From a virus: DNA of 51,291 nt. The translations under genes and the position numbers were made by a program. Each line of letters begins with the position of its first letter. Positions within the stretch are counted from its first letter, which is position 1. Location of the stretch: IMG/VR virus record IMGVR_UViG_3300037424_000161, positions 1 to 51,291 of that record. One strand, given 5' to 3'. Positions 2,193 through 38,669 of this stretch are shown piece by piece. The notes beneath the pieces were generated by a model. It had not been told where the DNA came from. It was given only the letters and a program-made list of their open reading frames with translations, and searched no databases.

Positions 2193-2195
2193 CCC

Positions 2196-2569: not shown

Positions 2570-2577
2570 GAGGAGCT

Positions 2578-3473: not shown

Positions 3474-3498
3474 AGATCATTCAAAAATTGAACGAACT
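3474..3498. repeat. 25-bp palindromic motif, copy 3
   Basis: agatcattcaaaaattgaacgaact; abuts the inverted repeat 3407-3415/3465-3473; ATG 3500 follows after 1 nt. Confidence 0.85.
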
Positions 3499-3499
3499 A

Positions 3500-4561
3500 A
3501 TGGCACCTAAACTTTCAATTATCATCAGTAACCGTAACGACGTGGCAATGTTAGCTGTCACTGTTCGCTCCTGCATAGAGGAACTTCGTCCACTCGGACC
3601 CGGTGCAAGTGAGATAGTGATCGCTGACAACTCTGACAAGGACACCTTTCAGCTCCTAAATGGTGCTTTACCTTCTGGCTACTGCAGAGACAAACTCCTC
3701 AGAATCCTTCGTCAAGACTTTCCCTGCCTTTTCTCCGCACGAGAGTTAGCAGCTGAAAGGGCCCTTGGACAGTACATACTATGTCTCGACTCACATATGA
3801 TAGTCGGACGAGATGTCTTCATCGACCTTGTCGACTTCATGGACCGCCACTCAAATGACAGTGATCTGGGCTTCGCTCATGCTCCAATTTCCTGGGCTCA
3901 TCAGCATGAAGATCGCGCTCGTCATGACCGTGATATGAGTCAGCATGAACTTGGTGCATGGGGTACAGCGTACAAAACTGAGCGTACAATAACTTGGAAG
4001 GGAATGCCTTGGATATGTCGCAGGGAATGGTTCCTTGACCGGAACAAGGGACTAAACGGCTACGGTGCTCTCTCTGAGCATCGTGTGAGTTGGGGAGGAG
4101 GGGACTTGCACATAGGCGTTAAGCCTTGGTTACTTGGATTTAAAAACTGGGCAGTCCCCTCTAACCCATGCATACATATAGGGCCGTTTCCTAAAGTAGA
4201 TCTGGGCAAAGATCCAAATACCACTATTGTCAACAAAGCTCGCCCCGATCGCTATCGCCTCTACAATACAAGTGGAGAGTTCCCTCATACTTTTGGATTT
4301 CTCGTCTCCTGCTACGTACTCGGAGGCGAACCTATGATGCATCGTAATAAGAAAGCTATCACCGAGCACTTTGGACGATTTCTAAATGTTGACAAGTGGT
4401 GGTCGAAAGCTATAGAAATTGGCACTAACGAACGAAAGTGGTTACTTGATCGACAAGTTATGTCATTCGAACAGCTTCTCATAACTAAACCTTGGAACTC
4501 TAATGGCTCAAACTCAACGTCAAGCGACGGATGCACAGATCTACAAGCTGTGGCTGTCTAA
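3500..4561 (+). CDS. GT-A fold glycosyltransferase (GT2/GT27-like)
   Basis: LSIIISNRND...EIVIADNSDKD is a GT2-type N-terminus. ILCLDSHMIV is a DxH motif. WGGGDLHIGVKPWLLG...PCIHIG resembles the WGGENLE Gal/GalNAc-T motif. TTG 3488 trimmed to ATG 3500. Confidence 0.75.
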   Translation: MAPKLSIIISNRNDVAMLAVTVRSCIEELRPLGPGASEIVIADNSDKDTFQLLNGALPSGYCRDKLLRILRQDFPCLFSARELAAERALGQYILCLDSHMIVGRDVFIDLVDFMDRHSNDSDLGFAHAPISWAHQHEDRARHDRDMSQHELGAWGTAYKTERTITWKGMPWICRREWFLDRNKGLNGYGALSEHRVSWGGGDLHIGVKPWLLGFKNWAVPSNPCIHIGPFPKVDLGKDPNTTIVNKARPDRYRLYNTSGEFPHTFGFLVSCYVLGGEPMMHRNKKAITEHFGRFLNVDKWWSKAIEIGTNERKWLLDRQVMSFEQLLITKPWNSNGSNSTSSDGCTDLQAVAV

Positions 4562-4997
4562 AGTACATGATAATAGATACCTACGCCCACAGCGATGGGC
4601 AGAGCTTCTCAAAGTAATAGAGAAGTTTCGTGTAAAAACAGTAATTGAGTTTGGCTGTGGTGTTTCTACACTACTGATGGGTCATAGAGGTATCCGAGTT
4701 GACACTTATGAAACTGATCCTTTCTACCTAGACTTCGTCAAGTCTCTCAATCCACCTAACGTACTCTTTCACCTTCACAATAACGTAAACATAGATGTAT
4801 CTGGCACTTACGACATGGCTCTAGTCGACGGAGTCCTCCCCCGACAGCCTCAGCTAAAGGCCGTCCTGCCACTTACCAGACTAATCGCAATAGATGACTT
4901 TGGCCCACTTTATAAACGCGAGCTTGTACCACTGTTAGGCAATCATACTCGGCTTAATCCAGGCGCACCGTTAATGGCTATTTTCAAGATCGAATAA
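4503..4997 (+). CDS. Class I SAM-dependent methyltransferase-like protein
   Basis: 164 aa. Motif I-like VIEFGCGVST, acidic VDTYETD and DMALVDG. Overlaps the GT gene by 59 nt. Confidence 0.55.
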   Translation: MAQTQRQATDAQIYKLWLSKVHDNRYLRPQRWAELLKVIEKFRVKTVIEFGCGVSTLLMGHRGIRVDTYETDPFYLDFVKSLNPPNVLFHLHNNVNIDVSGTYDMALVDGVLPRQPQLKAVLPLTRLIAIDDFGPLYKRELVPLLGNHTRLNPGAPLMAIFKIE

Positions 4998-6743: not shown

Positions 6744-7207
6744 TGGCTGACAATCCTCAGAAATGGTCTGCCTACACAGCTGCAAAGACTGCATTGTTTG
6801 CAGCTACAGATTTAAAGAACTTGACGACTGGATCTGGTAAGCTATCAACGGCTTCAGCCATTAACAATGCAGCCGGAGATCAGCTAGCCGACCTCGAACT
6901 CTTAATTGATTTAGCAACTGCTGCAGCTGCTGGTGGCTACATTGCTATCTGGTTTATCAAAGCTCTCGATGCATCAAACTATGGAAGCGGCGCTGACGCA
7001 GTATTCCCAGCTAGACCCCCGGATGTAATTATTCCCGTGCGTTCGACCACGGATGACTCACAGGTCGTTACCATTGCTGGTGTACTGTGGCCTCAGGGGT
7101 TATTCAAAGTACTATTTCAGAATAACTCTGGTCAGACAACAACTAACACAGATAGTCTAACTCAAGTTTATTTCCGTTCCTATAACAATAATATAGTGAC
7201 TCCATAG
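6743..7207 (+). CDS. Hypothetical structural/accessory protein
   Basis: 154 aa; start overlaps the terL stop; first of four genes between terL and portal. Confidence 0.55.
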   Translation: MADNPQKWSAYTAAKTALFAATDLKNLTTGSGKLSTASAINNAAGDQLADLELLIDLATAAAAGGYIAIWFIKALDASNYGSGADAVFPARPPDVIIPVRSTTDDSQVVTIAGVLWPQGLFKVLFQNNSGQTTTNTDSLTQVYFRSYNNNIVTP

Positions 7208-8094
7208 TGTCTAAACATTCTCTAATCTGGAATCCATTATCTACTGTGGCTCCTACAACTCTTCCTCCGACGACGTTAGCTCCGACAACAATTCCTACAA
7301 CTTCAGCTCCAACAACTGTCGCTCCTACACTTCCTCCAACTACCCTTGCACCAACTACAGTTCCGACAACTCTCCCTCCTACTACCTTAACTCCAACTAC
7401 CCCAGCTCCAAGCGAAATTAAAGTATCTAAGGCTGTAGTATACTCTGTCCTAGGTCCTCCATACATAAGTGTTTCTAAATCGATCATTTATGCTGTAATA
7501 GAAGAAGTAGTACCTACAACTCTACCAACTACAGTCGCTCCGACTACTCTTCCATCTACATCTCCTCCTACGACTCTCGCTCCAACCACAGTACCAACTA
7601 CTACTGCTCCAACAACTTTGCCGACAACATCTCCATCTACTACAGAGGCTCCTACTACTCTAGCCCCTACAATTGTACCTACAACTCTTGCACCAACAGT
7701 ACTTCCTACTACTCTTCCACCTACAACCTTAGTTCCACCTACAACTCTAGCACCTACCGTTGCTCCAACTACTTTAGCTCCCACTATACCTCCTACAACG
7801 ATAGCTCCGACTACATTTCCTACAACTACTCCTCCGACCACAATAGCGCCTACCACTCACCTAACATCCTTAGCACCCACTACACCTTCCACAACAGGTG
7901 TACCAACAACAGTACTACCAACAACTATAACTCCGACAACCCTTACACCTACAACTTTCTTATCATTAGCTCCAACGACAGCTATACCTTATGTCATATG
8001 TGAGAAGGTATTCGACTCTCGTATTACTAACATATTACATCTAGTCTCATCTATCACTAAGGAGATCAAGTACAATGGACACCTTTGTGGGTGA
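7207..8094 (+). CDS. Pro-Thr-Thr repeat (mucin-like) protein
   Basis: GTG start overlapping the upstream stop. About 220 of 295 aa are x-P-T-T-[LVI] pentads (nt 7249-7410 and 7513-7980). These are split by VSKAVVYSVL/VSKSIIYAVI strands. Confidence 0.6.
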   Translation: MSKHSLIWNPLSTVAPTTLPPTTLAPTTIPTTSAPTTVAPTLPPTTLAPTTVPTTLPPTTLTPTTPAPSEIKVSKAVVYSVLGPPYISVSKSIIYAVIEEVVPTTLPTTVAPTTLPSTSPPTTLAPTTVPTTTAPTTLPTTSPSTTEAPTTLAPTIVPTTLAPTVLPTTLPPTTLVPPTTLAPTVAPTTLAPTIPPTTIAPTTFPTTTPPTTIAPTTHLTSLAPTTPSTTGVPTTVLPTTITPTTLTPTTFLSLAPTTAIPYVICEKVFDSRITNILHLVSSITKEIKYNGHLCG

Positions 8095-8464
8095 TACTCC
8101 AAGATTGGTTATCAAAACAGGTATTGATCTCTCTGGCTATGACACCTTATTGATAAAGTTTAGACGTCCTAATCATACATCAGGGTTTTGGACCGCTACC
8201 ATATATCCTACTAATAACACTTGGATGTACTATGACTTACTACCTACTGATCTTAACATACCAGGAATGTGGGCACTAGAAGCTCACGCTCATGATCCAG
8301 CATTACCAGGAGCTGTGACCGCCCATCTCCATGGTAAACCTTTTAATCTAGACATAGCTATGCCATTGACAGAGTCATCTTCACCTCCGACAACAATGGC
8401 ACCAACGACGACTATAACGACTTTGTCACCAACAACATTAGCGCCAACAACTTTGGCACCGTAG
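8075..8464 (+). CDS. Hypothetical structural protein with C-terminal PTT tag
   Basis: 129 aa ending SSSPPTTMAPTTTITTLSPTTLAPTTLAP (nt 8375-8461). Confidence 0.55.
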   Translation: MDTFVGDTPRLVIKTGIDLSGYDTLLIKFRRPNHTSGFWTATIYPTNNTWMYYDLLPTDLNIPGMWALEAHAHDPALPGAVTAHLHGKPFNLDIAMPLTESSSPPTTMAPTTTITTLSPTTLAPTTLAP

Positions 8465-12617: not shown

Positions 12618-13070
12618 ATGGGACTTGAACAGAATAACGAACAGCACTACCGGGAGGTGGTCGATAAGTTCGTTGACATCAATGAGGATTACCAGATGTC
12701 AACGAGGGACTATGTGGTTCGCCCCTCGGCTCATGACCCTCTCAATCAGGCAATCGCTCTTACATTGCCCCCTGTGGCAGAAGCAGTTGGACGCTTCTAC
12801 TCCATCATTTCTCGTGGAGCTGACGCAGTCAATACTATCACTATTCACGACAGACATGATTCAGAATGCTGGACTGCTGACATTGTGATGAATAGCAAGT
12901 GCGACCGTGTACTTATGTACAGCGATGGACTCTGCTGGCATGCACTAACATCCGAATCAGTTGGTGATTGGCCTGGTCAGACTACCAGGGCTCCTGGAAC
13001 TGCGAGACCTACTACACTGGCTCCTACTACACTAGGGCAAACAACTGAGGCGCCAACTACTGCTCCTTAG
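12618..13070 (+). CDS. Hypothetical head-associated protein with C-terminal PTT tag
   Basis: 150 aa ending GQTTRAPGTARPTTLAPTTLGQTTEAPTTAP (nt 12975-13067). Located directly upstream of the capsid gene. Confidence 0.55.
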   Translation: MGLEQNNEQHYREVVDKFVDINEDYQMSTRDYVVRPSAHDPLNQAIALTLPPVAEAVGRFYSIISRGADAVNTITIHDRHDSECWTADIVMNSKCDRVLMYSDGLCWHALTSESVGDWPGQTTRAPGTARPTTLAPTTLGQTTEAPTTAP

Positions 13071-19834: not shown

Positions 19835-21151
19835 ATGTCTACTCCGGCGCCAACGACATTAGCACCTACTACACCACTGTCACCTACAACTCCAGTACCT
19901 ACTACCTTAGTCGCTCCAACCACGGCTACTACGACAGGTGTGCCAACTACTGAAGCACCTACAACTACACTTACAACATTAGCTCCCACGACAGCAGCCC
20001 CAACGACAGTAGGTCCAACTACACTAGCACCTACGACTATAGTACCAGGTACTACACTAACAACAGTTGCTCCCGCTACAGCTGTGCCAGGTACTTCTGC
20101 ACCTTCACAGATTGAGTATCCGGCTAATTTAATTCTCTACCCAGGTCCAATAGAGATTACCTTATCACTACATGGAGAGATACTTAACAAAACAGTATTT
20201 GTCCAGCCTCTGATAATAACTCTCAGTCTACTCGGATCATATGCTAAGGATGTGTATATAGATGGTGGTCCCATAGAGATCACTATTACACTCCATAGTT
20301 ATGGTACACTAACGGCTGGTGCTAACAAGTGTAACTGGATTCAGTGGTCTAAGGTTGGTTACCTAGACTTTACCATAGATGAATCGAACGTAGCTGGGGA
20401 ACGACCACTTGACTGGAAGGGATGTGTTAGTGAAATACTCAAACTTGTTGATCGAGTGATTGTCTATGGTGAGAATGGTGTGAGTATGATGTCTCCAGCA
20501 GGTGTCAACTGGGGAATGCAAACTCTGCATAGACTGGGGGTTGTATGTAAGCCAGTTGGTACAGATACTGAACACTTCTTCATTGATAAGACTAACAAAC
20601 TATATAGGTTAGCAGGAGATGGACTTAAGCTACTTGATTACTCTGAGTTCCTCTCAACACTAACAAATCCTAGAATGTTACTTGATACAGAAACAGGTAT
20701 CATCTACATCTGTGATGGAGAACTTGGATTTGTCTATAGCACAAAGAGTGGAAGCTTCGGTTCAGGCCCAGTTAATGTAACTGGTGTTGGTACACAGAGT
20801 GGAACACTCTATGTTGTAGCATCTGATATAATCGAAGTACCTAAACTGCATATTTGCACAGATATCTATGACCTAGGTACTCGTAAGCCTAAGACAATTC
20901 AGTGGATTGAAGTAGGTACAGATCTATCTAATGGTCTGCAAGCAATGGTAGAGTCAAGAGTTAGTAACAAACAAGGATTTATGGAATCTAGGTGGATCTT
21001 AGTTAATCCAAGTGGGATGGCATTCATCCCTTGTTATGGGCGAGAGTTTAAGTTTCACCTTCGATCATTCATCTATGAATATCTCGAACTAGATTACCTT
21101 AGGGTGACTGGAACAGTACACGGAACTAACTATCTCGATCAGGTGGGATAA
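19835..21151 (+). CDS. Tail fibre/spike-like protein with 91-aa N-terminal PTT region
   Basis: GGAGG upstream. N-terminus MSTPAPTTLAPTTPLSPTTPVPTT... (nt 19835-20107), followed by repeats GPIEITLSLHG / PLIITLSLLG / GPIEITITLHS. Confidence 0.6.
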   Translation: MSTPAPTTLAPTTPLSPTTPVPTTLVAPTTATTTGVPTTEAPTTTLTTLAPTTAAPTTVGPTTLAPTTIVPGTTLTTVAPATAVPGTSAPSQIEYPANLILYPGPIEITLSLHGEILNKTVFVQPLIITLSLLGSYAKDVYIDGGPIEITITLHSYGTLTAGANKCNWIQWSKVGYLDFTIDESNVAGERPLDWKGCVSEILKLVDRVIVYGENGVSMMSPAGVNWGMQTLHRLGVVCKPVGTDTEHFFIDKTNKLYRLAGDGLKLLDYSEFLSTLTNPRMLLDTETGIIYICDGELGFVYSTKSGSFGSGPVNVTGVGTQSGTLYVVASDIIEVPKLHICTDIYDLGTRKPKTIQWIEVGTDLSNGLQAMVESRVSNKQGFMESRWILVNPSGMAFIPCYGREFKFHLRSFIYEYLELDYLRVTGTVHGTNYLDQVG

Positions 21152-26700: not shown

Positions 26701-29700
26701 CTACTCAGACATAGAAAATCCTATCGTTAGACTTAGGTTTAATGATCGCACTGATGCACAAGGTAATAAGGTCCTCTTCATCGAAGAGCTCCAACCACCT
26801 AACCCTGAGAATCAAGCTAAAATGCCTCCTGAGTTTGTCAAAAGGTGGCGTGAGATAGGAATGAAACGTGCTATTAAATATGCTATAGATGGAGGATATG
26901 ATAGAGTAGCGTGGACTACTGGGGAGATGCAAGCTAATCGCTACACACTGGAAAGACAGGTTAATAGAATAGATTGGGCTAGAAGAGAACCAGATGAAGG
27001 AATGAGGAAGGGGGCTGAAGGATATTATCTTATCAATGTTACTACAAAAGATGGTGGAGTGATTGATTACTATCCTAAACCAAATGAGCTTTCAGAATTA
27101 GTAGGTAAAGAGTTAGCTGAAAAAATCTTAAGTTCAGATAAGAAGCTCGGTATTATAGAAGGGGTTGATCTTAAGATTGGTGGTCAAGGGATTAAAAAGA
27201 TCTACGACCAAGACCTTCCCAATGTAGCTAGGAGATTAGGAGGGAAGGTTGAGGAGATAAAATTACATCTTGGAAAGGATATTGACGTATCTAAAATAGT
27301 TGAGTCTGATAATCTTTGGTATGTAGATCAGCATCCATTCCCATATCCTACTAGAGAGGCTGCTATTAGAGCCTTATCTGGAGACATTACTAGACCAAGT
27401 GAATCATCTGTCCCTTCCTTCTCCCTCTCTCCTTTCAAACAATCTCCTTACCAACCGACACTTTATAGTGGGATACCCGTAGACAAGATCAAGCAAACTA
27501 TCAAGGACATTTTCTCTCGGCCTAACATAGAAAAAGAAGACGTCCCCGACACTCTCTCAGGTGCCCTCGCTGCCGGTCGCCGTGGATTTAAGTACATGGA
27601 AGATGCTAGAAAGATGAAGGAGTTTAATGTACTTGAGGCGGCAAAGATCACACAAGAGACGTTTACGAGAGCGGCTATTGAAAGATCAGGGAATATTGCT
27701 AGAGACATTATAAATAAGTTAGGCAACAAAGGAATAGATGTACTTCAGTCCATGTATCTTTCTCGTGGAGGACATCCTCGAGCCACTAATATGCTCGAGC
27801 AGATGAGTAAAGAGGTTTACAATGGACTAAGTAGAAATGAACTGAAGATATTTGATACTGTCGATCTAGCTCGTAGAGTACTCTCTATTGCGAACTATAA
27901 GACCAAGAAACAGTTTAAGCCACCTAAGGATATGTCGGTAGAGACATCAGCTATTATTGATACACTTTATAGATATAAGTCTGTTAATGGACTGGAGAAC
28001 TTAACTGATGAACAGGTGGCAAAGATCGAGCGCTCTCATCAAGCCTATGTAGATTGGATGAAGAAGGCTCTCAGTGATATGTATAATGAGGGACAGTTAA
28101 TCACTGAAGAAGAGTACAATAACTTAGTCATTCATAACTATCGTAAGTTAGGAAAGGTCAATGAAGTTTACGATCGAAGCTATCGGGTTGAGATAGGTGG
28201 GAAGAAAAGAACTATTTACGATTCAGGAGTTGAGTCACTTCAGAGAGGTAAGGACACAGATATACTTGAGCCCAGCTCAAAGGTGATGGCACTTGAGGTG
28301 TTTAATAGAGCTTATGGTAGGATAATGCATAACAAAGCTAACCTTGAGTTGCTTAAGTTAGCTAGGGATGTTAAAGATAATCCCTTTGTAAGGTTCAAGG
28401 AGAGTAAGGAGGATAAGATTCCTCGGGGATTTCAAAGGTTCTTTGTGTATGAGAAGGGACAGCGTAAAGCTATCTATCTATCTCCTGACATGGCCAAGGA
28501 ATGGCTAACTAGTTCACCTGAGGTAAGTTTTAGATTCGCTAAGGTGATGAGATTCCTAAGTGGAACTCCAATAGTTCGTACCTTTGCAACTGGCATTGAG
28601 TGGGGATTTGCACTGGCTAATGTGCCTAGGGATGTAATGCATCTTTGGTATGCGGCTAGACAGTTCACAGATGGTAGGTGGGAAGGAGTGTATAATGCTA
28701 ACCTTCCAGTGTTTGCACTACAGCTAGGTAAAGATGTACAAGAGACGTTCAGTGATGCTGCATTGCGTAAGGGATTGTATGATGACTATATGAAGTACGG
28801 TGGAGGGATGGACCTGCTCACATTGCAATCTAGGTTGTTCGTGAGAGGTCGTCACCTTGATTCATCTGTGAGTAAGTACGAAGACTTCCTAGGTTACTTT
28901 GGAGTTACATCTGAGTTAGCTACACGTCTAGCTATAATGAACAGGGTTATTAAGAATAGAGCAGCTGAACGAGGGATTAGTTATGCTGAGGCTAGAAAGA
29001 ATCCTGATATATTGAAGGATGCTACATTCTCAGCTCGTGACTATATGGACTTTAGTCAGGGCGGGAGTATGATTAAGGCTATGGATAATGTTATTCCTTA
29101 TTTGAATGCCAGCATTGTAGGTACACGTAGCTTGATGAGAGCATTCAAACCTGGCAGTGGTACAGCCCTCACATCATCTTGGAAGTTAGCTCAGTTTGGA
29201 CTGCTAGTTGGAGGAGCTACAGCTTATTTCTACAAAGAAAATCCTGAGACAATGGAAGCACTTAAAGGTAACATAGCTGCACAGAATAACTTCGTTATTC
29301 CGCTCGGTGATGAGTATGGATTTGAGGATCAGGAAGGACAGATGAGATACCCTTTCCTCAAGATCCCTCTCGATCCTGGACAGAAGTTCTTCAAGACATT
29401 CTTTGAAGCAGCTACGATGAAATGGTTAGGGTATGATGTAGATATAGATCGTGTAACTGGATCACTTAAGCAAATGTCTCCAGTGTCAGGTACTGAGTTA
29501 CCTCCAGTTCAGGCAGCTATACTTGGTTATGTTACTAATAAGGATTTCTGGACTAACGAAGACATATGGAAGAAGACACCTAAGCCACTTCCATATCCGA
29601 TGAGTGCTGAGGAATTTATCCCTGGGCAGACAGGTGAAGTTTACACAGCGATAGGTGAGAAGACTGGGCTGTCGCCTGAACGGATTAAGTATGCTGCTGA

Positions 29701-30271
29701 GGAATTAGTTACATCAGGAAGTATGTGGTCTTACCTTGGAGGTAAGGCTTACTCATCAGTGTTTGGTGATCTACCGAAGGAAGAGAAGGAACAGCATCTT
29801 GCGATGACACTATCGAAGATCCCTGCAATTAATAGATTCTTCGGTGTTACTAATCCTTACTCAAAATATGCAGCTAGCATAACTGAAGCTGAGGCCGAGA
29901 GTGCTACAAAAAGGTGGATTGAGACAAGGGAATTAGATGCTAGAATCAATGGATACCTTTATAAAGGTAATGTGAAGAAGAGTGAGATCTTTGATTATAT
30001 CAGAGCGCAGAAAGATCCTAACACACAAGAGAGATTGTTCGAGCGCTATGTATTAGCAGAAGGTGTGAAGAACTTACCTAATCGTAGCTTCTGGATGAGG
30101 TTGCAGAATCTAACAACTGAGGCTAGAGCTAAGGTATTTGTAGACAGAATGAATAAATCATCTGAAGCTGAGAAGGTTCAGCTGAACAAGGAAGCTGGAC
30201 AAGCAGCTGCAATAGGTGGAATACTGTCAGATGATTTCTGGGTTGAAGTAGCTAAGTTGAGGCGGAAGTAG
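23696..30271 (+). CDS. Giant (~2191 aa) internal/ejection-type polyvalent protein
   Basis: ORF open from 23627; ATG 23696 overlaps the upstream stop by 14 nt. Features: duplicated LILPFE motif, Gly-rich hydrophobic segments, an A/K/E low-complexity stretch, and a conserved-looking block NPIVRLRFNDRTDAQGNKVLFIEELQ. Confidence 0.7.
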   Translation: MPLSDQDTLILPFEQGGKAKEKGQASSSLILPFERSEPTPIVPSQPSVRPNLPYGQATSISAGKPYEPSLAQNVVGGIAKLLGVPYDPALGLDPERAKADALVQRKANEKGVPLYQYRNSPEMLEQFVGEFGNMMTLGAAPTLRKAILGTEEVKPSGSAGIIGAQLGSLAGLITGPGKWAGMALGGAIRFLPGATQEMQLSHRIIVEALRDSATLGTAMGASALGDAASQVTFSDAAGVIWDRMKSGAMTGALFGVAKGMFPKEGWEKGARLLSGLVMLNVQRKIEGGWEKNPFADRPVGEVLFDIGLDAFFLWKGLPKNQFDSLVKDVSDNVDRVVATNQKIEGLKDVPEGELKKAKEKKLAIEQKQNQLEVEQAAKKAAAAAEAAEKAKVKAEEAAKAKVKKAPETEEERKVRMAKVRAAGKVKVPTEEAKPIEPVVTPVEQPKPELLQTEIPKVMEQAEVPAAEPPVKKLTKPQQARVDKVKLLSAEGKDPGQIAFKMNMKEAEVRSILGMEPPKLILPGEKVEPVKPSEKIDYLSEGPKAKVEPKVRSKIEQTPPTPSEPSTGLVVTPSDMKALEAKFGPNWDELSDKEIGDFLATKPTEVKPAVEVPLVEERSDIEKYYNKDIEKITQSEFDKYFDLMEAGEVGVKTEPITNVDLQTGTPEPAELVGDDSIYSADKAATDARTKLYQNNKAVANNISELLSRNPVLPKDPGATAWKLFNDVNRWLHGEEVDIAGTRGFLSELAARADEFKDQFIGEDYPQSFYDWKEMISDGANWARKVDRTKIERTGQTLYSGVDPFKLYEGLQNWFSQLRKDAERKLPNKATGEQISNTLRKGVTQDEWNRSGLSKLLVAGQKYTKEEVIGTIDKNLPVLKDVVLDKEANINEVEHFRAKAREIKEVLDQDPTNVELRQQWKDAIGRIDVALIERDRMGPKFSSYVEPGGSNYKELFVTAPLDRSRYIEFEKAHPQPEYYSSELYYDNLKNSWIKDNTWQDGHPDYSDIENPIVRLRFNDRTDAQGNKVLFIEELQPPNPENQAKMPPEFVKRWREIGMKRAIKYAIDGGYDRVAWTTGEMQANRYTLERQVNRIDWARREPDEGMRKGAEGYYLINVTTKDGGVIDYYPKPNELSELVGKELAEKILSSDKKLGIIEGVDLKIGGQGIKKIYDQDLPNVARRLGGKVEEIKLHLGKDIDVSKIVESDNLWYVDQHPFPYPTREAAIRALSGDITRPSESSVPSFSLSPFKQSPYQPTLYSGIPVDKIKQTIKDIFSRPNIEKEDVPDTLSGALAAGRRGFKYMEDARKMKEFNVLEAAKITQETFTRAAIERSGNIARDIINKLGNKGIDVLQSMYLSRGGHPRATNMLEQMSKEVYNGLSRNELKIFDTVDLARRVLSIANYKTKKQFKPPKDMSVETSAIIDTLYRYKSVNGLENLTDEQVAKIERSHQAYVDWMKKALSDMYNEGQLITEEEYNNLVIHNYRKLGKVNEVYDRSYRVEIGGKKRTIYDSGVESLQRGKDTDILEPSSKVMALEVFNRAYGRIMHNKANLELLKLARDVKDNPFVRFKESKEDKIPRGFQRFFVYEKGQRKAIYLSPDMAKEWLTSSPEVSFRFAKVMRFLSGTPIVRTFATGIEWGFALANVPRDVMHLWYAARQFTDGRWEGVYNANLPVFALQLGKDVQETFSDAALRKGLYDDYMKYGGGMDLLTLQSRLFVRGRHLDSSVSKYEDFLGYFGVTSELATRLAIMNRVIKNRAAERGISYAEARKNPDILKDATFSARDYMDFSQGGSMIKAMDNVIPYLNASIVGTRSLMRAFKPGSGTALTSSWKLAQFGLLVGGATAYFYKENPETMEALKGNIAAQNNFVIPLGDEYGFEDQEGQMRYPFLKIPLDPGQKFFKTFFEAATMKWLGYDVDIDRVTGSLKQMSPVSGTELPPVQAAILGYVTNKDFWTNEDIWKKTPKPLPYPMSAEEFIPGQTGEVYTAIGEKTGLSPERIKYAAEELVTSGSMWSYLGGKAYSSVFGDLPKEEKEQHLAMTLSKIPAINRFFGVTNPYSKYAASITEAEAESATKRWIETRELDARINGYLYKGNVKKSEIFDYIRAQKDPNTQERLFERYVLAEGVKNLPNRSFWMRLQNLTTEARAKVFVDRMNKSSEAEKVQLNKEAGQAAAIGGILSDDFWVEVAKLRRK
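25342..25366. repeat. 25-bp palindromic motif, copy 9 (intragenic)
   Basis: agttcgttcaaaaatcgaacaaact inside the giant CDS, encoding VRSKIEQT. Confidence 0.8.
26047..26071. repeat. 25-bp palindromic motif, copy 10 (intragenic)
   Basis: agatcgtacaaaaattgaacgaact inside the giant CDS, in the same codon phase as copy 9, encoding DRTKIERT. Confidence 0.8.
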
Positions 30272-31513: not shown

Positions 31514-31816
31514 CTACTGTTCTTTAACAAAGATACCGTTGACCATCTTACCACGACGGTCCTTTATTTGGATGTAAGCATAGAGATAGCACTGAGTTAG
31601 AGTAACTCCATTAAATCCAGCTATCATAGTAAGAACAACTATCATATCACCGATGCTATCTATAGTACCTTCTAAATCACTATCAGTTAGTGCATCACCA
31701 AGCTCAACAAACTCTTCTTTTAGTTTTGTAAGTTGTCCAAGATCAGAAGATTGTTCAAAAATTGCACGATCTTCAGCCCACGATAGGACTTTCTTCTCTA
31801 TCTCTTCGAAGTTCAT
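31514..31816 (-). CDS. mazG: MazG-like nucleotide pyrophosphohydrolase
   Basis: 100 aa. Contains KLKEEFVELGDAL and SIGDMIVVL helices typical of small phage MazG-like proteins. Overlaps the polymerase 3' end by 44 nt. Confidence 0.55.
   Translation of the reverse strand: MNFEEIEKKVLSWAEDRAIFEQSSDLGQLTKLKEEFVELGDALTDSDLEGTIDSIGDMIVVLTMIAGFNGVTLTQCYLYAYIQIKDRRGKMVNGIFVKEQ
31748..31772. repeat. 25-bp palindromic motif, copy 12
   Basis: agattgttcaaaaattgcacgatct; directly abuts the polymerase stop (31773-31775) and lies inside the mazG N-terminal coding region. Confidence 0.7.
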
Positions 31817-34307
31817 TGTAGATCTCCTGTAATTTCTCGGCTAATAGATTAACATTACCTGGAATATACTTACTCTTTAGTTCTTTCATTAACTCCTTAC
31901 ACATACAAAAACCTATTGATAGATCAACTGGTGTCTTAATCTCAACCCCATGCCATTCTAATGGAGTTTCAAGCGAGCACTTAATTAACAGTAACATCTT
32001 AGCATGTTCTTCCCATGGTACAGTGAGTGGTATCTGAAACACAATTGAGTCATGGATCTGAGTGAGGAGTTCAAGTGGTCTGAATAACTGTTGATTGTAA
32101 TAGATGTATTCAATTCCTTGTTCGTTTACTTTGTCGGCACAAGTACTTTGAGGTAGCTGAGCATAACCTTCACGATAGGTATCTTGACAGGCATTAAGTG
32201 GTACAGTGTGAGATGGATAGACTGGACCAAGGAATAGTCGAGAGCGACCGAATAGATTGATCACAGTCCTATCACGCTTAAGCATTTCCTGAATCACTAC
32301 GTGATAGCCACATCTGATCTGTGGGTAGCCTCGATGAATCTTCTCGAGAATGTACTTCGACTCGGCCTCTGGCATTTCATTCTTGAGTGCAAATGTCTTA
32401 TATCCGACGTCGTAGTTGACAGCGTGATTGCCTTTCTTACCCCAATAGCGTTCACTGTGACGACCATCTCCAATGTCACTCGATCCATCTTTATCAGATA
32501 CTTGATTATAAGGTTTATCCAGTATGATGCCAGCAGTCATTCTATGGAGGTCGATGTCTTGTTCGAAGGCTTCAATCTGACTGATAACTCCTCCAACATA
32601 AGCGACAAGTCTGTTCTCAATTTGGCTAAGGTCAAAGCTGTATCCGATATATCCTTCATCGAAGAGGAAGAAGCGAAGAAGATCATGTGGCCAGTTTTGC
32701 TGGTTACCTCCAGTGCCAAAGATAGTCTCGCCCGACGACAGCCTCCCAGTTTCAGCGCCAACTGGTTTATATGAGCTTCTATATCGTCCATCTGGGTCCA
32801 CCTTTCCTATATTGAGATAAGTTGATTTACGTTTTTCAAGACTACGAATATCTAGCATGATGCGAGCGACTGAGGAACCTGGACCGTTGCGACGATAGAT
32901 ACGCTTGAGTGCATCAACGTCACTTGTATCAACAAACTGGCCATGAGCATTCTTTTTCTTATAAGGTTTAAGACCAGTCCTCTTATAGAAATAGTTCATC
33001 AATTGCTGAGGTGAGTTATGATTAATATCGTAGCCGACCTCACTACGTAACTCACTGATGAGTTCAGCTAGCTTAACCTCTTGCTCATCCCTATAAGTCA
33101 CCATCCCTTGTACATCTATCTTTATGCCTCTCTCGCTCATGTAAATGAGAGGTTCGATTAACTTACGCTGTCGCTCATATGTTTCAAAGTTATGTTGTTT
33201 GTGAAGTACTTGAATTTGTTTAGGGATAGCCTCAACTGGAACTATCGAGTCCATTCCGCTGTAGTTCCACCAACTCTCCCATGAACCTCCTTGCATCTTC
33301 ATCCATTGCTTGCCGTCTTGCTTATAATAAGGAATGTCAGTATACATTGTAGTAACAAAATCCAGTCCAGCAGGGAAATCTGGGTAAGCAATCTTCTGTG
33401 CGATCTGAGTGCAGTGTAGATTACCCCGAGGACGTATACCGTATTTATGGAACAGAAACTGAAGGTCAAAAATAAAATTAGCTCCACTTTTAGATATCCT
33501 TTCCTCTTGGATTATCTTGGATATGAGAAGCATTATTTCTAGTTCTTGATCTGGACTAAAGTAATCTCCGTGACTACTTCTGAACGGGATACTGACAGAC
33601 TCAGTTGAGGACCAACCAAAGGAGATGCAGTCCACTTCGCCATTAATAACCTCAATGTCGAGAGAAATAGTTTGGCCTCTGAGACCGACTTCATAACAAT
33701 GGTGTAGGATGTCGACTGACTCATTATAACTTGGGCAAATAGTGATATTGCGTCCTGTTCTATGGATTTCTTTATACTCACTTTCATGTTTAGCCCTCAT
33801 TAGATCTTCACAGATCAAAGGTTTGTTGAGAAAGTTAAACTTAGGTGGGATGAAGGTAGCTGGGTGAAAGGTGGGTAAGACTTTCAGTCCTGGTACAAGG
33901 GTTGATTCGAGGACTGAGCCGCGCCACTTTGTGATTCCGACTCGATTAGTTAGAGCGATTAGTGATATGTTGCCGAGTGCTACAATACAATTAAGGTGAA
34001 GTTTTCGTAACTCTTCACCTAGTTCTTGGATGTACTGGTAGCCCTCAGGACTGATCGTCCACTTGCCTCGAGCGTCTAGGTCAATATAGTGACCAAGTGG
34101 GGCATCGAGATCTTTGATCACGTTGGTTAGGTAGAGATCTCTCCTCAGTATCTTTGTCATTGTCAAGCACTCGTCCAATCCTTGGCCTGCTGGACCGACG
34201 AAAGGACGAGGCGGATTAGCGCGAATCTCCTGCTGTCCCGGTTGCTCACCACACACAGCGAGGACTGCATCTGTGTTACCTGAGGGATGGACGTAAGTGC
34301 GTCTCAT
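31773..34307 (-). CDS. Family A DNA polymerase with N-terminal family-4 UDG-like domain and 3'-5' exonuclease
   Basis: 844 aa. UDG motifs GEQPGQQE, FVGPAGQ and FHPA. Exo motifs SLDIEV and NFIFDLQFL. Pol motifs FDLSQIENR (A), KKGNHAVNYDVGY (B, Tyr at the discriminator position) and QIHDSIV (C). Confidence 0.85.
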   Translation of the reverse strand: MRRTYVHPSGNTDAVLAVCGEQPGQQEIRANPPRPFVGPAGQGLDECLTMTKILRRDLYLTNVIKDLDAPLGHYIDLDARGKWTISPEGYQYIQELGEELRKLHLNCIVALGNISLIALTNRVGITKWRGSVLESTLVPGLKVLPTFHPATFIPPKFNFLNKPLICEDLMRAKHESEYKEIHRTGRNITICPSYNESVDILHHCYEVGLRGQTISLDIEVINGEVDCISFGWSSTESVSIPFRSSHGDYFSPDQELEIMLLISKIIQEERISKSGANFIFDLQFLFHKYGIRPRGNLHCTQIAQKIAYPDFPAGLDFVTTMYTDIPYYKQDGKQWMKMQGGSWESWWNYSGMDSIVPVEAIPKQIQVLHKQHNFETYERQRKLIEPLIYMSERGIKIDVQGMVTYRDEQEVKLAELISELRSEVGYDINHNSPQQLMNYFYKRTGLKPYKKKNAHGQFVDTSDVDALKRIYRRNGPGSSVARIMLDIRSLEKRKSTYLNIGKVDPDGRYRSSYKPVGAETGRLSSGETIFGTGGNQQNWPHDLLRFFLFDEGYIGYSFDLSQIENRLVAYVGGVISQIEAFEQDIDLHRMTAGIILDKPYNQVSDKDGSSDIGDGRHSERYWGKKGNHAVNYDVGYKTFALKNEMPEAESKYILEKIHRGYPQIRCGYHVVIQEMLKRDRTVINLFGRSRLFLGPVYPSHTVPLNACQDTYREGYAQLPQSTCADKVNEQGIEYIYYNQQLFRPLELLTQIHDSIVFQIPLTVPWEEHAKMLLLIKCSLETPLEWHGVEIKTPVDLSIGFCMCKELMKELKSKYIPGNVNLLAEKLQEIYNELRRDREESPIVG

Positions 34308-34315
34308 ATGTCTCC

Positions 34316-34340
34316 AGTTCGTATAAAATTTGAACGAACT
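34316..34340. repeat. 25-bp palindromic motif, copy 13
   Basis: agttcgtataaaatttgaacgaact. On the minus strand it is followed by GGAGACAT-ATG of the polymerase (34307). Confidence 0.9.
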
Positions 34341-35671
34341 TATGCACCAGCCTGCTTCATCAAATGAGCTTTAACCAGGAAACTATCCTTATAACCTTTG
34401 CTAAGCTCAAAACCCACAGCTGACATGCCAAGAGAATGAGCTGCAAGAAGACCATTACCGCTACCGAGAAATGGAATAAGTACTCGAGAACCCTGAAAGG
34501 CAAAGGTATCATAAAGCTCCTTCATCAACTCAATAGGTCGTTCGGTAGGGTGAGTCTTACTTTGTGCTGGCACAGGACTAAAATGAAAGTCATTTCCATG
34601 ACCTGCTTTATTGAGGGCTGGCTGACCCTTCCACGCATAGAAGAACATTTCATAGGAGTTAGCGAGTCGTGTAGAGGGATTCATGTTCTGACCTGGAGTC
34701 CCTTTAGTCCAAATACCTACCATACGAGTAGTTTCAAAGCCAGCGCTTTCAATCCAGTTAAATATATGCTCAAACCATGGCTGAGGAGCAAACCAACAGA
34801 TTAACCAGGAGTGAGCTGCCATTACACGGTAGCATTCCTTAAAAGTACGAAGCATTAGGTCAGGGTAGGAGTCCTTACTCATCTCATTGTAGTTGTCAAG
34901 AATGTACTGGGACTCACCATCTTTCTTTTTCTGGTCTGTTAAGTTGATTGCATAAGGTGGATCTATCTCTACAAGGTGCATAAAGTTGTCAGGGATCTCC
35001 TTAACCCCCTCGAAGAAGTCCTTTATAATGAAGCGCTTGGCTAGATCATGTAAGTCTGTATTAACAGATTCAGCCTCAAGCTTCTGTGCAATAACTTGCT
35101 TAACCATTGCTTCGTCGACTTTCTTGAGAACCTTAGATGCGTCAGAGGCCGTCTTACAGTTTTCGAATAGCTCTGGGAATGCTTCACGAGCCTGAGCGCG
35201 TTTGACAGCTTCAGTTACAGTAGCAGGTGACGCAGCTCCGATCATATCAGCTGTGTCACGAGTACCCCAACCAGTCTGACCAGGACCAGGTGCTTTGACG
35301 CCGTGTAGTTCTTGTTGCATCTGATGAATTTCGAGAGTGAGTCTATCAAACTCCCAGTACTCCATATCTTTACGATAGAAGTTTTCTGACTTCTCTATAA
35401 TCTTCATCTCGAGGTCGGAAAGATCTTCTTCGTAGATACGTACTGGTATAAGATCCACAGAGTTACGACTAAGCACAGTAAACCTACGCTCACCAGCAAG
35501 AAGTATATAGGTGCCATCTTTGTTATCCTTTACAGCGAGTGGTTGGATGAGACCGGATTCCTTCATATTAGCTTCAAGGCCATCTAGGTCACCCATCTCT
35601 TTACGCACTCGCTCATTTATAATGACTGAACCAGTAGCAATCATTCCAACTTTACCTACAGCTATTGTCAT
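34340..35671 (-). CDS. ParB-like nuclease domain fused to DNA (N6-adenine/N4-cytosine) methyltransferase
   Basis: 443 aa. ParB box LLAGERRF in the N-terminal third. DPPY (VEIDPPYA), then HPTERP and FLGSGNG, which is the beta-class motif order. Confidence 0.7.
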   Translation of the reverse strand: MTIAVGKVGMIATGSVIINERVRKEMGDLDGLEANMKESGLIQPLAVKDNKDGTYILLAGERRFTVLSRNSVDLIPVRIYEEDLSDLEMKIIEKSENFYRKDMEYWEFDRLTLEIHQMQQELHGVKAPGPGQTGWGTRDTADMIGAASPATVTEAVKRAQAREAFPELFENCKTASDASKVLKKVDEAMVKQVIAQKLEAESVNTDLHDLAKRFIIKDFFEGVKEIPDNFMHLVEIDPPYAINLTDQKKKDGESQYILDNYNEMSKDSYPDLMLRTFKECYRVMAAHSWLICWFAPQPWFEHIFNWIESAGFETTRMVGIWTKGTPGQNMNPSTRLANSYEMFFYAWKGQPALNKAGHGNDFHFSPVPAQSKTHPTERPIELMKELYDTFAFQGSRVLIPFLGSGNGLLAAHSLGMSAVGFELSKGYKDSFLVKAHLMKQAGA

Positions 35672-36063: not shown

Positions 36064-36282
36064 TTACTCCATCCATCTTACACAATCTTTTGTTGTACAA
36101 GTGCCCCATAGATGTCCATTATAAGCAGCTACTGAATAATGTAAAGTTCCAGTTTTACATATAGGGCATGGAAGTGTTCCATCTCCGCCCTTACCTTTTA
36201 CGTGGCCGTTAGATTTAGCTACTCTATGGGCTTCATTGGCAGCTATTACAACATCTGGTAGTTTATTATTATCAGTGTTCAT
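36064..36282 (-). CDS. Zinc-ribbon protein
   Basis: 72 aa; CPICKTG...CTTKDC; GGAG upstream. Confidence 0.5.
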   Translation of the reverse strand: MNTDNNKLPDVVIAANEAHRVAKSNGHVKGKGGDGTLPCPICKTGTLHYSVAAYNGHLWGTCTTKDCVRWME

Positions 36283-36529
36283 CTTGTTTATCTCCAGCCA
36301 ACGATGCCTGTTTCATAGATCTAATTATCTCTCGTGGCTTTACAGTGCCACTCATTAGGACACCAATAGCTATCCCACCATGTTCCTCGATCATGTCTAG
36401 GACATCATTTAGGATGGGCTGGAAGATAGCTTTACGTAGACCGTATTGGGAGATGAGTTTAGCAGCACGATTCTTTTGTTCTTCTGTAATCTCAAAGATG
36501 AAACGGGGTTTGTATTCTTCATCTAACAT
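36272..36529 (-). CDS. Hypothetical protein
   Basis: 85 aa; GGAG upstream. Confidence 0.5.
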   Translation of the reverse strand: MLDEEYKPRFIFEITEEQKNRAAKLISQYGLRKAIFQPILNDVLDMIEEHGGIAIGVLMSGTVKPREIIRSMKQASLAGDKQDEH

Positions 36530-36533
36530 CTTT

Positions 36534-36761
36534 CTACTCCATTAGTTTCTGCTGAAGTTCTTGTATACGGCACCAGAGGATGAAGGCCCAGCCACTTACA
36601 TCGAGTAGCTCTTGCTGTATCTCGTCAAGTAATTTGTCAGGTGAAGCTCCAAATGAAGTGTCACCATATGTCTCAGCGCCAATTAAGAGACGATCACGTA
36701 GCATAGCTGAGTACATTGGCCACTTACGTACAATAGCATCACGGGAGATAGGGCAGTTCAT
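36534..36761 (-). CDS. Hypothetical protein
   Basis: The ORF-track start 36773 is a TTG. ATG 36761 has GGAG 7 nt upstream and a TAATG overlap with the upstream stop. Confidence 0.5.
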   Translation of the reverse strand: MNCPISRDAIVRKWPMYSAMLRDRLLIGAETYGDTSFGASPDKLLDEIQQELLDVSGWAFILWCRIQELQQKLME

Positions 36762-37927
36762 TAGCGTCTCCAATTAACCTTAGGCATAATCACTTCCTTA
36801 ATCACTCGATCACGGAAAGGAAGGATTCGTCTAATAAGGTTAGTTATCTGTGTCTGAATATCCTGAGTTGGTGTATATCCTAATTCAAATAGTTTATGAT
36901 GCACTGGGTTGTAATAGTGTGACTCAGCTTCAAGTCGAGGATTAGGAATATGATCTATATCAAGATACGAGGAGCGCTCAAGACCTAAATCCCGGGCTGA
37001 TTGTTGCACCATCTTGGCTAACTGATTGACTGTATAGAGGTTCTCGAACTGGTTGAAAGTTCGATATTCACCTTCAGAAGGAGGATTGTTTAGTGCTATT
37101 GTTAGACACTGAATCGAATCTTTCAATGGCAGAAATCCACGAGTCTGTTCTCCTTTTCCGTACACAGTTAGAGAATGTCCAATGATGGCCTGAACACAGA
37201 AGCGATTAATCACAGTGCCGAAGCACTCGTCGTAGTCGAACCTTGTTAACTCATTATCATTTTTAGTTTCGTTAAGACCGAAGACTACACCTTGCATAAT
37301 GTCGGTAGAGTGTAGACCCCAGTTACGACAGGCAAACTCAATGTTGTGAGTGTCGTGGACTTTGCTTAAGTGGTAGAAAGAACCTGCACTACGTGGAAAT
37401 AGTAGATTAGCATATGGACAATCAGTATCACCCTCATGCCAAGCTTTATCACTTCCTACTATTGCAGAATGAACTTCTGGTATTCTTCCTTCGGGTATAT
37501 CACAATTAGGTGTTCCATACTCTCCCATTGTACCTAATTTAATGAGATGGGCTGAAGGACAGGACTCTTTCATAGCCCAAAGTAGATGTAATGTACCTAT
37601 AACATTCTGCTGCTGAGTCTCAGTCGCATGACGAACTGATTTCATTGAGTATGCAGCAGATGGTTGTTCAGCCAGATGTATGATTGCTTCTGGTTGAAAT
37701 GACCTTACTAGATTAGTGAGTGCTGTATAATCCACACCAAGAGTTATTCTGGAAGTAGGAAACTTCTTCCTATGATCAATAGATGTTAGGGAAGAACTTC
37801 CTTCATTGTACACTCTATGATCTCTCGAATGATTATCCATACCAAGTACATCATGGCCCCTAGAATCTAGATGAAGTGCCAGTGGCCATCCAATATAGCC
37901 GTCAATTCCCAGAATGAGAACTCTCAT
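36761..37927 (-). CDS. sqdB: UDP-sulfoquinovose synthase (SQD1/SqdB) homologue, extended SDR
   Basis: 388 aa. Blocks ILGIDGYIGW, KLGTMGEYGTPN, SFYHLSKVHDTHNI (YxxxK), NRFCVQAIIGHSLTVYGKGEQTRGF and PNPRLEAESHYYN match my recollection of SQD1 almost block for block. Confidence 0.7.
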   Translation of the reverse strand: MRVLILGIDGYIGWPLALHLDSRGHDVLGMDNHSRDHRVYNEGSSSLTSIDHRKKFPTSRITLGVDYTALTNLVRSFQPEAIIHLAEQPSAAYSMKSVRHATETQQQNVIGTLHLLWAMKESCPSAHLIKLGTMGEYGTPNCDIPEGRIPEVHSAIVGSDKAWHEGDTDCPYANLLFPRSAGSFYHLSKVHDTHNIEFACRNWGLHSTDIMQGVVFGLNETKNDNELTRFDYDECFGTVINRFCVQAIIGHSLTVYGKGEQTRGFLPLKDSIQCLTIALNNPPSEGEYRTFNQFENLYTVNQLAKMVQQSARDLGLERSSYLDIDHIPNPRLEAESHYYNPVHHKLFELGYTPTQDIQTQITNLIRRILPFRDRVIKEVIMPKVNWRR

Positions 37928-38207: not shown

Positions 38208-38669
38208 TTAGAACTCTTCATCAGCAGCTGCAACCCTTCTTGCAGGCCCGGCTCCAACAACATACTTGGAGATAGTATTCTTATCCCCGTACTGATCATC
38301 CTTTTGAATTCCTAGAATGACCCAGCCTTCCTTACCGACTAGCTCATTCCAATCAAAAGGTCGACTATAGTCAATTCCGAAACAGATAGCAAAATTCTTG
38401 AACTGACTAAGTGCACGAGTAGCTTTCTTCATATCAAGCTTATCTCGAGTCGCCAGATCCCAGAAGAAAGCATTGAATTCCTTCACAAGGGGCTGATCAG
38501 AAATATCGAAGAGTGGCTGATAATAGTGGGCTCCATTATTCTTGTCACTATATCCGTCATTCATTCCGATAATTCGTGCCTTTACCTCTGACCCACGAGG
38601 AAGGATAGTGGGATCTTGAGAGGTGGAGATTTCCTTTTCCAAATTACTATAATCTGATAGAGGTGACAT
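38208..38669 (-). CDS. Putative ssDNA-binding protein
   Basis: 153 aa ending in an acidic tail AADEEF, as in many SSBs. Adjacent to the recombination ATPase and exonuclease. No motif-level proof. Confidence 0.4.
   Translation of the reverse strand: MSPLSDYSNLEKEISTSQDPTILPRGSEVKARIIGMNDGYSDKNNGAHYYQPLFDISDQPLVKEFNAFFWDLATRDKLDMKKATRALSQFKNFAICFGIDYSRPFDWNELVGKEGWVILGIQKDDQYGDKNTISKYVVGAGPARRVAAADEEF

Follow-up and report, generated by a model that had tools for sequence, protein, structure and literature searches.

A phage-encoded member of the SQD1 family co-occurs with a glycosyltransferase and threonine-rich protein tags and may belong to a virion glycosylation module

The IMG/VR virus record IMGVR_UViG_3300037424_000161 (positions 1 to 51,291; this whole stretch of 51,291 nucleotides is hereafter called the window) looks like a complete phage genome of ~51 kb. 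At 36761-37927, on the minus strand, it carries an open reading frame (ORF) of 388 amino acids (aa) with an ATG start, whose product is a putative uridine diphosphate (UDP)-sulfoquinovose synthase of the SQD1/SqdB/Agl3 family. The window also encodes one glycosyltransferase, hereafter called GT2, and four structural-module proteins that bear [A/V/L]PTT[L/V/I] repeats. We propose that these three parts belong together. The features concerned, with the basis of each assignment in brackets, are as follows.

36761..37927, minus strand: SQD1/SqdB/Agl3-family gene, putative UDP-sulfoquinovose synthase, 388 aa (homology, model, catalytic residues, clade membership)
3488-4561, plus strand: GT2, a GT-A glycosyltransferase of 357 aa with a TTG start and a DxH motif (LDSH), predicted soluble (Pfam PF00535, model)
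7207..8094, plus strand: mucin-like protein made almost entirely of [A/V/L]PTT[L/V/I] repeats, with 35 PTT; proposed O-glycosylation acceptor (sequence)
8075..8464, plus strand: 129-aa structural-module protein with a C-terminal PTT tag (SSSPPTTMAPTTTITTLSPTTLAPTTLAP) (sequence)
12618..13070, plus strand: 150-aa protein with a C-terminal PTT tag (RPTTLAPTTLGQTTEAPTTAP), between the scaffold-like and major capsid genes (sequence)
19835..21151, plus strand: 438-aa structural-module protein with a PTT-rich N-terminal region of ~90 aa (sequence)
31773-34307, minus strand: UDG-domain/PolA DNA polymerase (Pfam; synteny in relatives)
34340-35671, minus strand: ParB_N/N6_N4 methyltransferase (Pfam; synteny in relatives)
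4503..4997, plus strand: 164-aa ORF directly after GT2, with a class-I S-adenosylmethionine (SAM)-methyltransferase-like motif, VIEFGCGVST (sequence)

The SQD1-like gene sits within a long minus-strand replication operon that reads, in order, DNA ligase, HIRAN, a Pam3_gp32-like protein, a PD-(D/E)XK nuclease, an AAA_24 ATPase, a 153-aa protein, the SQD1-like gene, small ORFs, the ParB_N/N6_N4 methyltransferase, the UDG-domain/PolA polymerase and DUF3987. The ATPase and the 153-aa protein thus lie on one side of the gene and the methyltransferase, polymerase and DUF3987 genes on the other, and the gene overlaps its upstream neighbor by 4 bp. On the plus strand, 36761-37927 is interrupted by stops throughout. 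The polymerase and methyltransferase genes (31773..35671) serve below as markers of the replication module and of the phage lineage.

An earlier note on this DNA had named exactly this ORF, leaving its strand unstated, had placed it in the replication module and had read it as an SQD1/SqdB homolog from six motif blocks. Each of these claims is borne out: the blocks are all present verbatim or nearly so (GIDGYIGW, KLGTMGEYGTPN, SFYHLSKVHDTHNI, NRFCVQAIIGHSLTVYGKGEQTRG, PNPRLEAESHYYN and the C-terminal IMPKVNW), and the best matches are SQD1 and named UDP-sulfoquinovose synthases rather than epimerases or dehydratases. In a phmmer search of the PDB, residues 2-388 aligned with residues 3-384 of Arabidopsis SQD1 in three entries (E=7e-103, 48% identity), while the next match outside SQD1, a UDP-glucuronate decarboxylase, reached only E=5e-07. 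With the NCBIfam model NF041015, “UDP-sulfoquinovose synthase”, the match spanned the whole model at 456 bits, against 46 bits for the family ranked next. An AlphaFold2 model of the protein (mean predicted local distance difference test score, pLDDT, 84; low confidence at residues 131-180) was superposed by Foldseek on 1qrr, 1i24 and 1i2b with a template-modeling (TM) score of 0.89, a root-mean-square deviation of 2.4 Å and E=4e-44; the best generic epimerase, at E=1e-21, was 22 orders of magnitude worse. The SQD1-type insertion after GTMGEYGTPN and the C-terminal extension are both present, and the NAD-binding motif GxxGxxG reads G7-I-D-G10-Y-I-G13, its three glycines being invariant in SQD1 and in the phage clade described below. 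Pfam returned only the broad Epimerase and GDP_Man_Dehyd families and PHROGs the label “nucleotide-sugar epimerase”; the Joint Genome Institute (JGI) auto-annotation already reads UDP-sulfoquinovose synthase. We conclude that the predicted 388-aa protein belongs, within the NAD-dependent extended short-chain dehydrogenases, to the SQD1/SqdB/Agl3 family and there to a phage clade.

Among GenBank phages no close homolog of the window protein was found, the best tblastn identity being 25%. Its best 120 matches in a large metagenomic protein collection are 57-78% identical to it, and many lie on contigs of 42-53 kb. In a neighbor-joining (NJ) tree these 120 proteins form one clade that excludes all 80 cellular homologs and SQD1, and with midpoint rooting a long branch parts the phage clade from all 80. 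Clade members are on average 65% identical to one another, 46-50% identical to the cellular proteins and 46% to SQD1. The clade also has a signature of its own, consisting of Pro101, Met208, Arg39, Met169, Thr290 and Pro366 plus three Cys in the lid loop that follows GTMGEYGTPN. In window numbering these are C142, C153 and C170; each position is Cys in at least 90% of clade members, the window protein itself having His153, and the triad is absent from all 80 cellular homologs and from SQD1. Metal binding is one possible role for it, a part in sulfite handling another. Judged by these features, the clade of the putative enzyme is phage-specific and new, the family being a known one.

A profile built from the clade found relatives of the SQD1-like protein on at least 134 IMG/VR contigs; a single-sequence scan with over-specific patterns had given nothing. 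Those contigs whose protein has the Cys signature also carry markers of this phage family. The earlier note had called such a gene unusual for a phage. This holds for GenBank phages, and has to be qualified in view of the IMG/VR contigs, the JGI annotation and a published viral contig (PMC7785012).

A second tier of IMG/VR relatives, at 46-50% identity, has neither the Cys signature nor the phage-family markers. These genes (L144-L149, L151-L155 and L162-L166, on contigs of up to 241 kb) are of the cell-type SqdB-like kind with Pro101 and Met208, and the contigs may be jumbo phages with an independently acquired sqdB or mis-binned cellular DNA.

Cellular homologs share at most ~52% full-length identity with the window protein and span many phyla, so that no donor lineage or host can be named. 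Next to them one finds most often a DPM1/GtrB-like polyprenyl-phosphate GT2 (29 loci) and, second, a GT-C-like membrane protein (18 loci). The cellular SqdB homologs (L007-L086) split into Arg101 and Pro101 types with distinct surroundings: the Pro/Asn type, mostly from Actinomycetota, adjoins the DPM1/GtrB-like GT2, and the Arg type, from Acidobacteriota, adjoins a GT-C-like membrane protein of 632 aa, a 388-aa GT2 and an AsnB-like protein. These neighborhoods suggest that sulfoquinovose glycoconjugates other than the sulfolipid sulfoquinovosyl diacylglycerol (SQDG) are widespread in non-phototrophs.

The catalytic residues of SQD1 (Thr145, Tyr182, His183 and Lys186) correspond to T133, Y185, H186 and K189 of the window protein. 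Across the 120 clade members the Thr145 position holds Thr in 111 and Ser in 9, and Tyr, His and Lys are each kept in 120/120. Met146, Glu148, Tyr149 and Gln209 (SQD1 numbering) and the blocks FGTxxNRF, YGxGxQxRG and NPRxExExHYY are likewise kept in all or nearly all of them. Alanine mutants of Agl3 showed that His95, Arg101, Met145, Tyr182 and Lys186 are essential (PMC4388408), and all five are conserved in the phage clade with the exception of Arg101. The 65% mean identity of the clade, together with its invariant catalytic residues, indicates purifying selection.

The SQD1-like gene is accessory: of the ~45-52 kb phages that make up a family related to Desulfofustis phage LS06-2018-MD01, roughly half have it. 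We sampled IMG/VR loci by their polymerase (PolA at least 60% identical, with at least 6 kb of upstream sequence; n=55) and found the gene 0.5-3.2 kb upstream of PolA in 27/55 loci and missing from that place in 28/55. In L288 and L274 the slot between the homologs of 38208-38669 and 36272-36529 is simply empty. On an NJ tree of PolA with 67 taxa (29 with the gene and 38 without), built without support values and from phage genomes that are mosaic, the presence pattern takes 11 parsimony steps, which implies that the gene was gained, lost or exchanged many times. In two distant relatives, L347 and L139 (portal 47% identical), the SQD1-like gene is instead found on the structural strand, immediately behind the capsid gene; in both, GT2 is present too, upstream of the terminase, and so is a Thr/Pro-rich tail. 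In some relatives a dCMP deaminase gene adjoins the SQD1-like gene (L002 9348-10004; L003 11481-11987); the window has none there.

GT2 is the only glycosyltransferase in the window (Pfam Glycos_transf_2, PF00535, E=2e-11). We prefer the TTG-started ORF of 357 aa because homologs are ~335 aa long; the JGI call (P0121) covers only 254 aa (71%). All of the top 50 PDB fold matches of its AlphaFold2 model (pLDDT 85.6) are polypeptide GalNAc-transferases (ppGalNAc-Ts), with E values from 2e-14 to 3e-11 and TMq of 0.48-0.64. Sequence identity to these enzymes is only 13-20%, and the lectin domain is absent. D101-S-H103 and H230 are invariant in 40 GT2 homologs, and no membrane segment is predicted. 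The modeled GT2 resembles the GT27 polypeptide GalNAc-transferases in fold and is at most a candidate member of GT27. Other searches added little: the PDB sequence search gave a chance match only, the BFVD fold search returned only generic GT-A proteins of phages and giant viruses, and PHROGs had nothing informative for GT2 or for the PTT proteins. The family is small, with 398 proteins at E<=1e-5, and its members lie on contigs of the same size as those with the SQD1-like gene (46885, 51637, 42217, 48304, 38862, 50889, 50436 and 52029 bp).

Two other features adjoin GT2. The 164-aa ORF at 4503-4997 has no Pfam or PHROG match and has homologs in 8 related viral loci; its place in the module is uncertain, and it might methylate a glycan or a protein. 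Positions 2001-4000 have a raised G+C content (50% against ~42%) and hold many overlapping spurious ORFs, the start of GT2 and, at 2578-3003 on the plus strand, a gene for a 141-aa protein with a clear signal peptide (MRRVFLFLLLALLAAPAWSQ). This patch is possibly a recent acquisition.

The four PTT-bearing proteins are all encoded in the structural module. The 12618-13070 product is, from its position, probably a head decoration protein. A homolog of the 8075-8464 protein in L351 ends in a similar tag, and homologs of the 19835-21151 protein in L339, L340, L342, L344, L349 and L006 are without the PTT-rich N-terminal extension. ORFs with at least 10 PT motifs occurred only in relatives that were GT2-positive or could not be assessed for GT2.

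Synthase, glycosyltransferase and tags are distributed together. Among the near-complete contigs (at least 40 kb) of the PolA sample, 11 had both the SQD1-like gene and GT2, 7 had the SQD1-like gene without GT2, 14 had neither and 0 had GT2 by itself (Fisher p=3.9e-4). GT2 was therefore found only in SQD1-positive genomes (11/18 against 0/14). This table is adjusted for two contigs, 3300026197_000004, where the SQD1-like gene lies elsewhere, and 3300033150_001682, where GT2 came from a profile scan. For the tags we used terminase-anchored loci that show both the GT2 position and a homolog of the 12618-13070 protein, an anchor on the portal having given 15 loci. A PT[TS] tag was present on that homolog in 12/12 GT2-positive loci and 0/12 GT2-negative loci (p=7e-7, with the PT[TS] rule picked after the data were seen); a stricter first rule, at least 10 of the last 20 residues being P, T or S, gave p=1.3e-3 and misclassified 4 visibly tagged tails. 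GT2-positive tails end in a Thr/Ala/Pro tag with PT[TS], whereas GT2-negative tails are of an unrelated type, ...GYDYDY. On contigs readable for both traits, SQD1-positive genomes were tagged in 11/11 cases and SQD1-negative genomes untagged in 4/4.

On the PolA tree the GT2-positive genomes are scattered over at least 8 separate branches, and every one of them is SQD1-positive. We rejected a single shared ancestry as the cause of the co-occurrence, the pattern on the tree being patchy and repeated, with the reservation that the NJ tree has no support values and the genomes are mosaic. Tags occur only with the glycosyltransferase and the glycosyltransferase never without the synthase, the pattern one would expect if the tags accepted a sugar whose donor the synthase provides. 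A phage synthase would not be required if the host supplied the donor, as with UDP-glucose.

We consider it somewhat probable that the phage converts UDP-glucose and sulfite into UDP-sulfoquinovose and that the sugar is then attached to the PTT tags by its own glycosyltransferase. If the enzyme works as SQD1 and Agl3 do, NAD+ held tightly in it would oxidize C4 of host UDP-glucose and elimination of water would give UDP-4-keto-glucose-5,6-ene; sulfite would then add at C6, and the 4-keto group would be reduced back to yield UDP-sulfoquinovose. The gene is expected to be transcribed alongside the replication genes, and the donor would therefore accumulate before or during virion-protein synthesis. 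The soluble, ppGalNAc-T-like GT-A enzyme (3488-4561) would move the sugar, in the cytoplasm, to Thr residues of the PTT tags and repeats, the acceptors being the products of 7207-8094, 8075-8464, 12618-13070 and 19835-21151. Assembled into virions, the modified proteins would form an anionic, sulfonated, mucin-like coat. The enzyme's product, the use of that product by GT2 and the role of the tags as acceptors are steps that we infer, as would be any benefit through shielding, adhesion or colloidal stability. The earlier note had offered this sulfosugar-donor role as one of two readings; the fold of GT2, its occurrence only with the synthase and its co-occurrence with the tags now lend it comparative backing, the function itself being deduced. 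More tentatively, and with somewhat less confidence than doubt, we extend the proposal to the family: widespread ~45-52 kb phages may use a repeatedly co-inherited three-part module to coat their virions with sulfoquinovose-bearing, mucin-like O-glycans. As predicted from its genes, the module is a new variant of phage virion glycosylation.

Several observations weigh against this proposal. At the position of SQD1 Arg101, 119/120 clade members have Pro; Agl3 loses its activity when this Arg is changed to Ala (R101A), and the mutagenic primer places that Arg in an EQRSAP motif (PMC4388408). The same position is Pro in 51 and Arg in 26 of the 80 closest cellular homologs (from GTDB species genomes), and a Pro-type archaeal protein, L029, passes the NCBIfam equivalog cut-off. 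Arg101 is therefore not family-defining, and the conclusion that its loss means inactivity is not decisive; the missing Arg remains grounds for caution. The window protein also scores below the NF041015 cut-off (456 against 575 bits). We dropped the conclusion that it is no synthase on this account after calibration: validated Arabidopsis SQD1 scores 485 bits, cellular proteins of the Arg and Pro types score 505-568, and the only calibrated protein above the cut-off is the Pro-type archaeal one, from Bathyarchaeia, at 593 bits. Since validated SQD1 itself falls short, the cut-off is too narrow to decide membership. The clade-specific lid Cys, together with the low-confidence part of the model at 131-180, make altered chemistry possible. 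No sulfite-generating enzyme was found among the window genes, so sulfite must be host-derived. Seven of the 18 SQD1-positive near-complete genomes are without detectable GT2, which means that the enzyme may act without this glycosyltransferase or that pattern scans miss copies; one of the seven, 3300037851_000404, carries tags. Finally, the co-occurrence tables are based on flanks of at most 10 kb and on matching of contig names, the pattern-based scans may overlook divergent copies, and the p-values ignore phylogeny.

The doubts about chemistry lead directly to the reading closest to our own, in which the module is the same and the sugar is another: an SQD1-derived enzyme with diverged chemistry would still supply the phage glycosyltransferase, and might release UDP-4-keto-glucose-5,6-ene, use a nucleophile other than sulfite or make some other 6-modified hexose. 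The changes that mark the clade cluster near the active-site lid (R101 to Pro, C142, C/H153, C170, W39 to Arg and K169 to Met), a long NJ branch separates it from the 80 cellular homologs, and Agl3, besides losing activity as R101A, forms the 5,6-ene when sulfite is withheld (PMC4388408). Yet the clade keeps all known catalytic residues, including the family-typical His beside the catalytic Tyr, Pro101 is frequent among cellular proteins named by NCBI as equivalogs, and nothing positive indicates another nucleophile. We therefore regard a different sugar as rather unlikely. The earlier note's second reading, an auxiliary metabolic gene, would have more UDP-sulfoquinovose feed a host SQDG synthase that swaps phospholipid for sulfolipid, sparing phosphorus for phage DNA. 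The enzyme family does catalyze the committed step of SQDG synthesis, the gene lies among early/replication genes, and 7 of the 18 SQD1-positive near-complete genomes have no detectable GT2. However, no SQDG synthase of the SqdX, SQD2 or SqdD type occurs in the window or in the flanks of its relatives (phage DNA only; the host may have the gene), the only named relative infects a non-phototrophic sulfate reducer, GT2 and PTT tags are confined to SQD1-positive genomes, and in L347 and L139 the gene is embedded in the structural module. Moreover, the closest cellular homologs neighbor GT2 and GT-C enzymes of the glycan-pathway type and no SQDG synthases. Finding no specific support for it, we consider the sulfolipid explanation improbable, and less likely than the sulfosugar-donor one.

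The neighborhoods of the cellular genes, with DPM1/GtrB-like GT2s at 29 loci and GT-C-like membrane proteins at 18, also recall Gtr-like conversion of the host surface, in which the sulfosugar would be placed on host lipopolysaccharide, capsule or S-layer to block superinfection or alter receptors. The phage GT2 is not of the GtrB type, however: it has no membrane segment and has the fold of a peptide O-GalNAc transferase. The searches of the window gave neither a flippase nor a GT-C gene, and the perfect co-occurrence of GT2 with tags on phage structural-module proteins points to the virion, which leaves surface conversion with little probability. Still less probable is DNA hypermodification, with the enzyme supplying a sugar for glycosylation of phage DNA. 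The dCMP deaminase gene next to the synthase in some relatives and the nearby ParB-methyltransferase and UDG-PolA genes would suit it, but no hydroxymethylase (ThyA/ThyX-like) or DNA glycosyltransferase was detected in the window, the sole glycosyltransferase is peptide-glycosyltransferase-like, and the gene stands in the structural module of L347 and L139. As for a generic UDP-sugar 4-epimerase or 4,6-dehydratase with a superficial likeness to SQD1, which the broad Pfam and PHROGs assignments might allow, it is effectively refuted: the SQD1 match leads by ~300 bits among PDB sequences, by ~400 bits in NCBIfam and, in terms of Foldseek E, by 22 orders of magnitude, and the SQD1-specific insertion and C-terminal extension are present.

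Sulfoquinovose is known from thylakoid sulfolipid and from N-glycans in Sulfolobus. Our literature search found no report of it on bacterial viruses or in O-linked glycans. If the sulfosugar-donor proposal is true, then, as far as we could find, no bacterial virus with a sulfonated glycoprotein coat would have been described before these phages, nor any O-linked protein glycosylation that uses sulfoquinovose, and the known biology of this sugar would come to include virus particles and O-glycosylation. The very short list of glycosylated phages would gain a case that is chemically distinct and permanently anionic. Sulfite would have a new sink in the module, and sediments and waters a new source of sulfoquinovose, with consequences for virion stability, adhesion to mucus and exopolymers, immune or receptor shielding, and sulfur cycling. 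Pro101 and the Cys triad would in addition offer a natural experiment on how sulfite is bound and delivered, a point still unsettled for these enzymes.

Three further features of the window deserve mention. The DNA polymerase A (31773-34307) has an N-terminal domain of the uracil-DNA-glycosylase (UDG) family (PF03167) fused to its exonuclease and polymerase domains, and this fusion is kept across the phage family. A plus-strand ORF of 2214 aa (23627-30271) has no Pfam match and a strong positive GC skew; homologs of 1500-2200 aa flank DUF3987 in all relatives, and the counterpart in the Desulfofustis phage has 1577 aa. At 13268-14113 on the plus strand, a LAGLIDADG homing-endonuclease-like ORF separates the major capsid gene from the small tagged gene of the head module. 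The window also carries SU10-type portal and capsid proteins and a terminase; it has no tRNAs, and megablast of 30-45 kb of it against GenBank phages gave no match.

The closest named genome, Desulfofustis phage LS06-2018-MD01 (OP947158), shares the replication gene order of the window (PolA 46.5%, capsid 51%, terminase 47% and portal 42% identical) and differs in that the SQD1-like gene, GT2 and the PTT-tagged proteins are all absent. The only mention of a virus-encoded UDP-sulfoquinovose synthase that we found in the literature is a putative one on a Mu-like viral contig from the Cariaco Basin, discussed in relation to glycosylation (Mara et al. 2020, PMC7785012); this is a single contig of another virus type, with no association with a glycosyltransferase or tags reported.

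Compared with Arabidopsis SQD1 (1qrr, 1i24, 1i2b), the phage protein has the same full-length homology (48%) and fold (TM 0.89), the GxxGxxG motif, T145/Y182/K186 and H183, as well as M146, E148, Y149, Q209, the family insertion and the C-terminal IMPxVxW. It differs in the replacement of Arg101 by Pro, F39 by Arg and N208 by Met and at the lid positions of the three clade Cys, the middle one being His in the window protein; its gene, moreover, is phage-encoded and has no SQDG synthase partner in the window. Agl3 of Sulfolobus acidocaldarius (PMC4388408) belongs to the same family, and there, as proposed here, the product feeds protein glycosylation rather than lipid. Unlike the phage clade, Agl3 has the essential Arg101, and it serves a lipid-linked N-glycan pathway, whereas the phage route would be direct cytoplasmic O-glycosylation by a GT-A enzyme.

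Capsid glycosylation encoded by phages has a precedent in mycobacteriophages Che8 and Rita, whose acceptor sites are reportedly C-terminal Ser/Thr-rich extensions and which are not known to have an SQD1-type nucleotide-sugar synthase. Che8 and Rita encode glycosyltransferases that modify their own capsid proteins and create a glycan shield, according to the account of Freeman et al. 2023 cited in PMC11256854. The window shares with the Che8-type system a phage glycosyltransferase and Ser/Thr-rich tags on structural proteins, predicted here from the genes. Che8 and Rita, siphoviruses of Actinobacteria, differ in host and virion type; the glycosyltransferase described here is like the eukaryotic ppGalNAc-Ts and its proposed sugar is sulfonated. 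Although GT2 is without the lectin domain and membrane anchor of the GT27 enzymes, would act in the cytoplasm and probably uses a donor other than UDP-GalNAc, it has in common with them the predicted fold, the DxH metal motif, a later invariant His and candidate acceptors that are mucin-like and rich in Pro and Thr.

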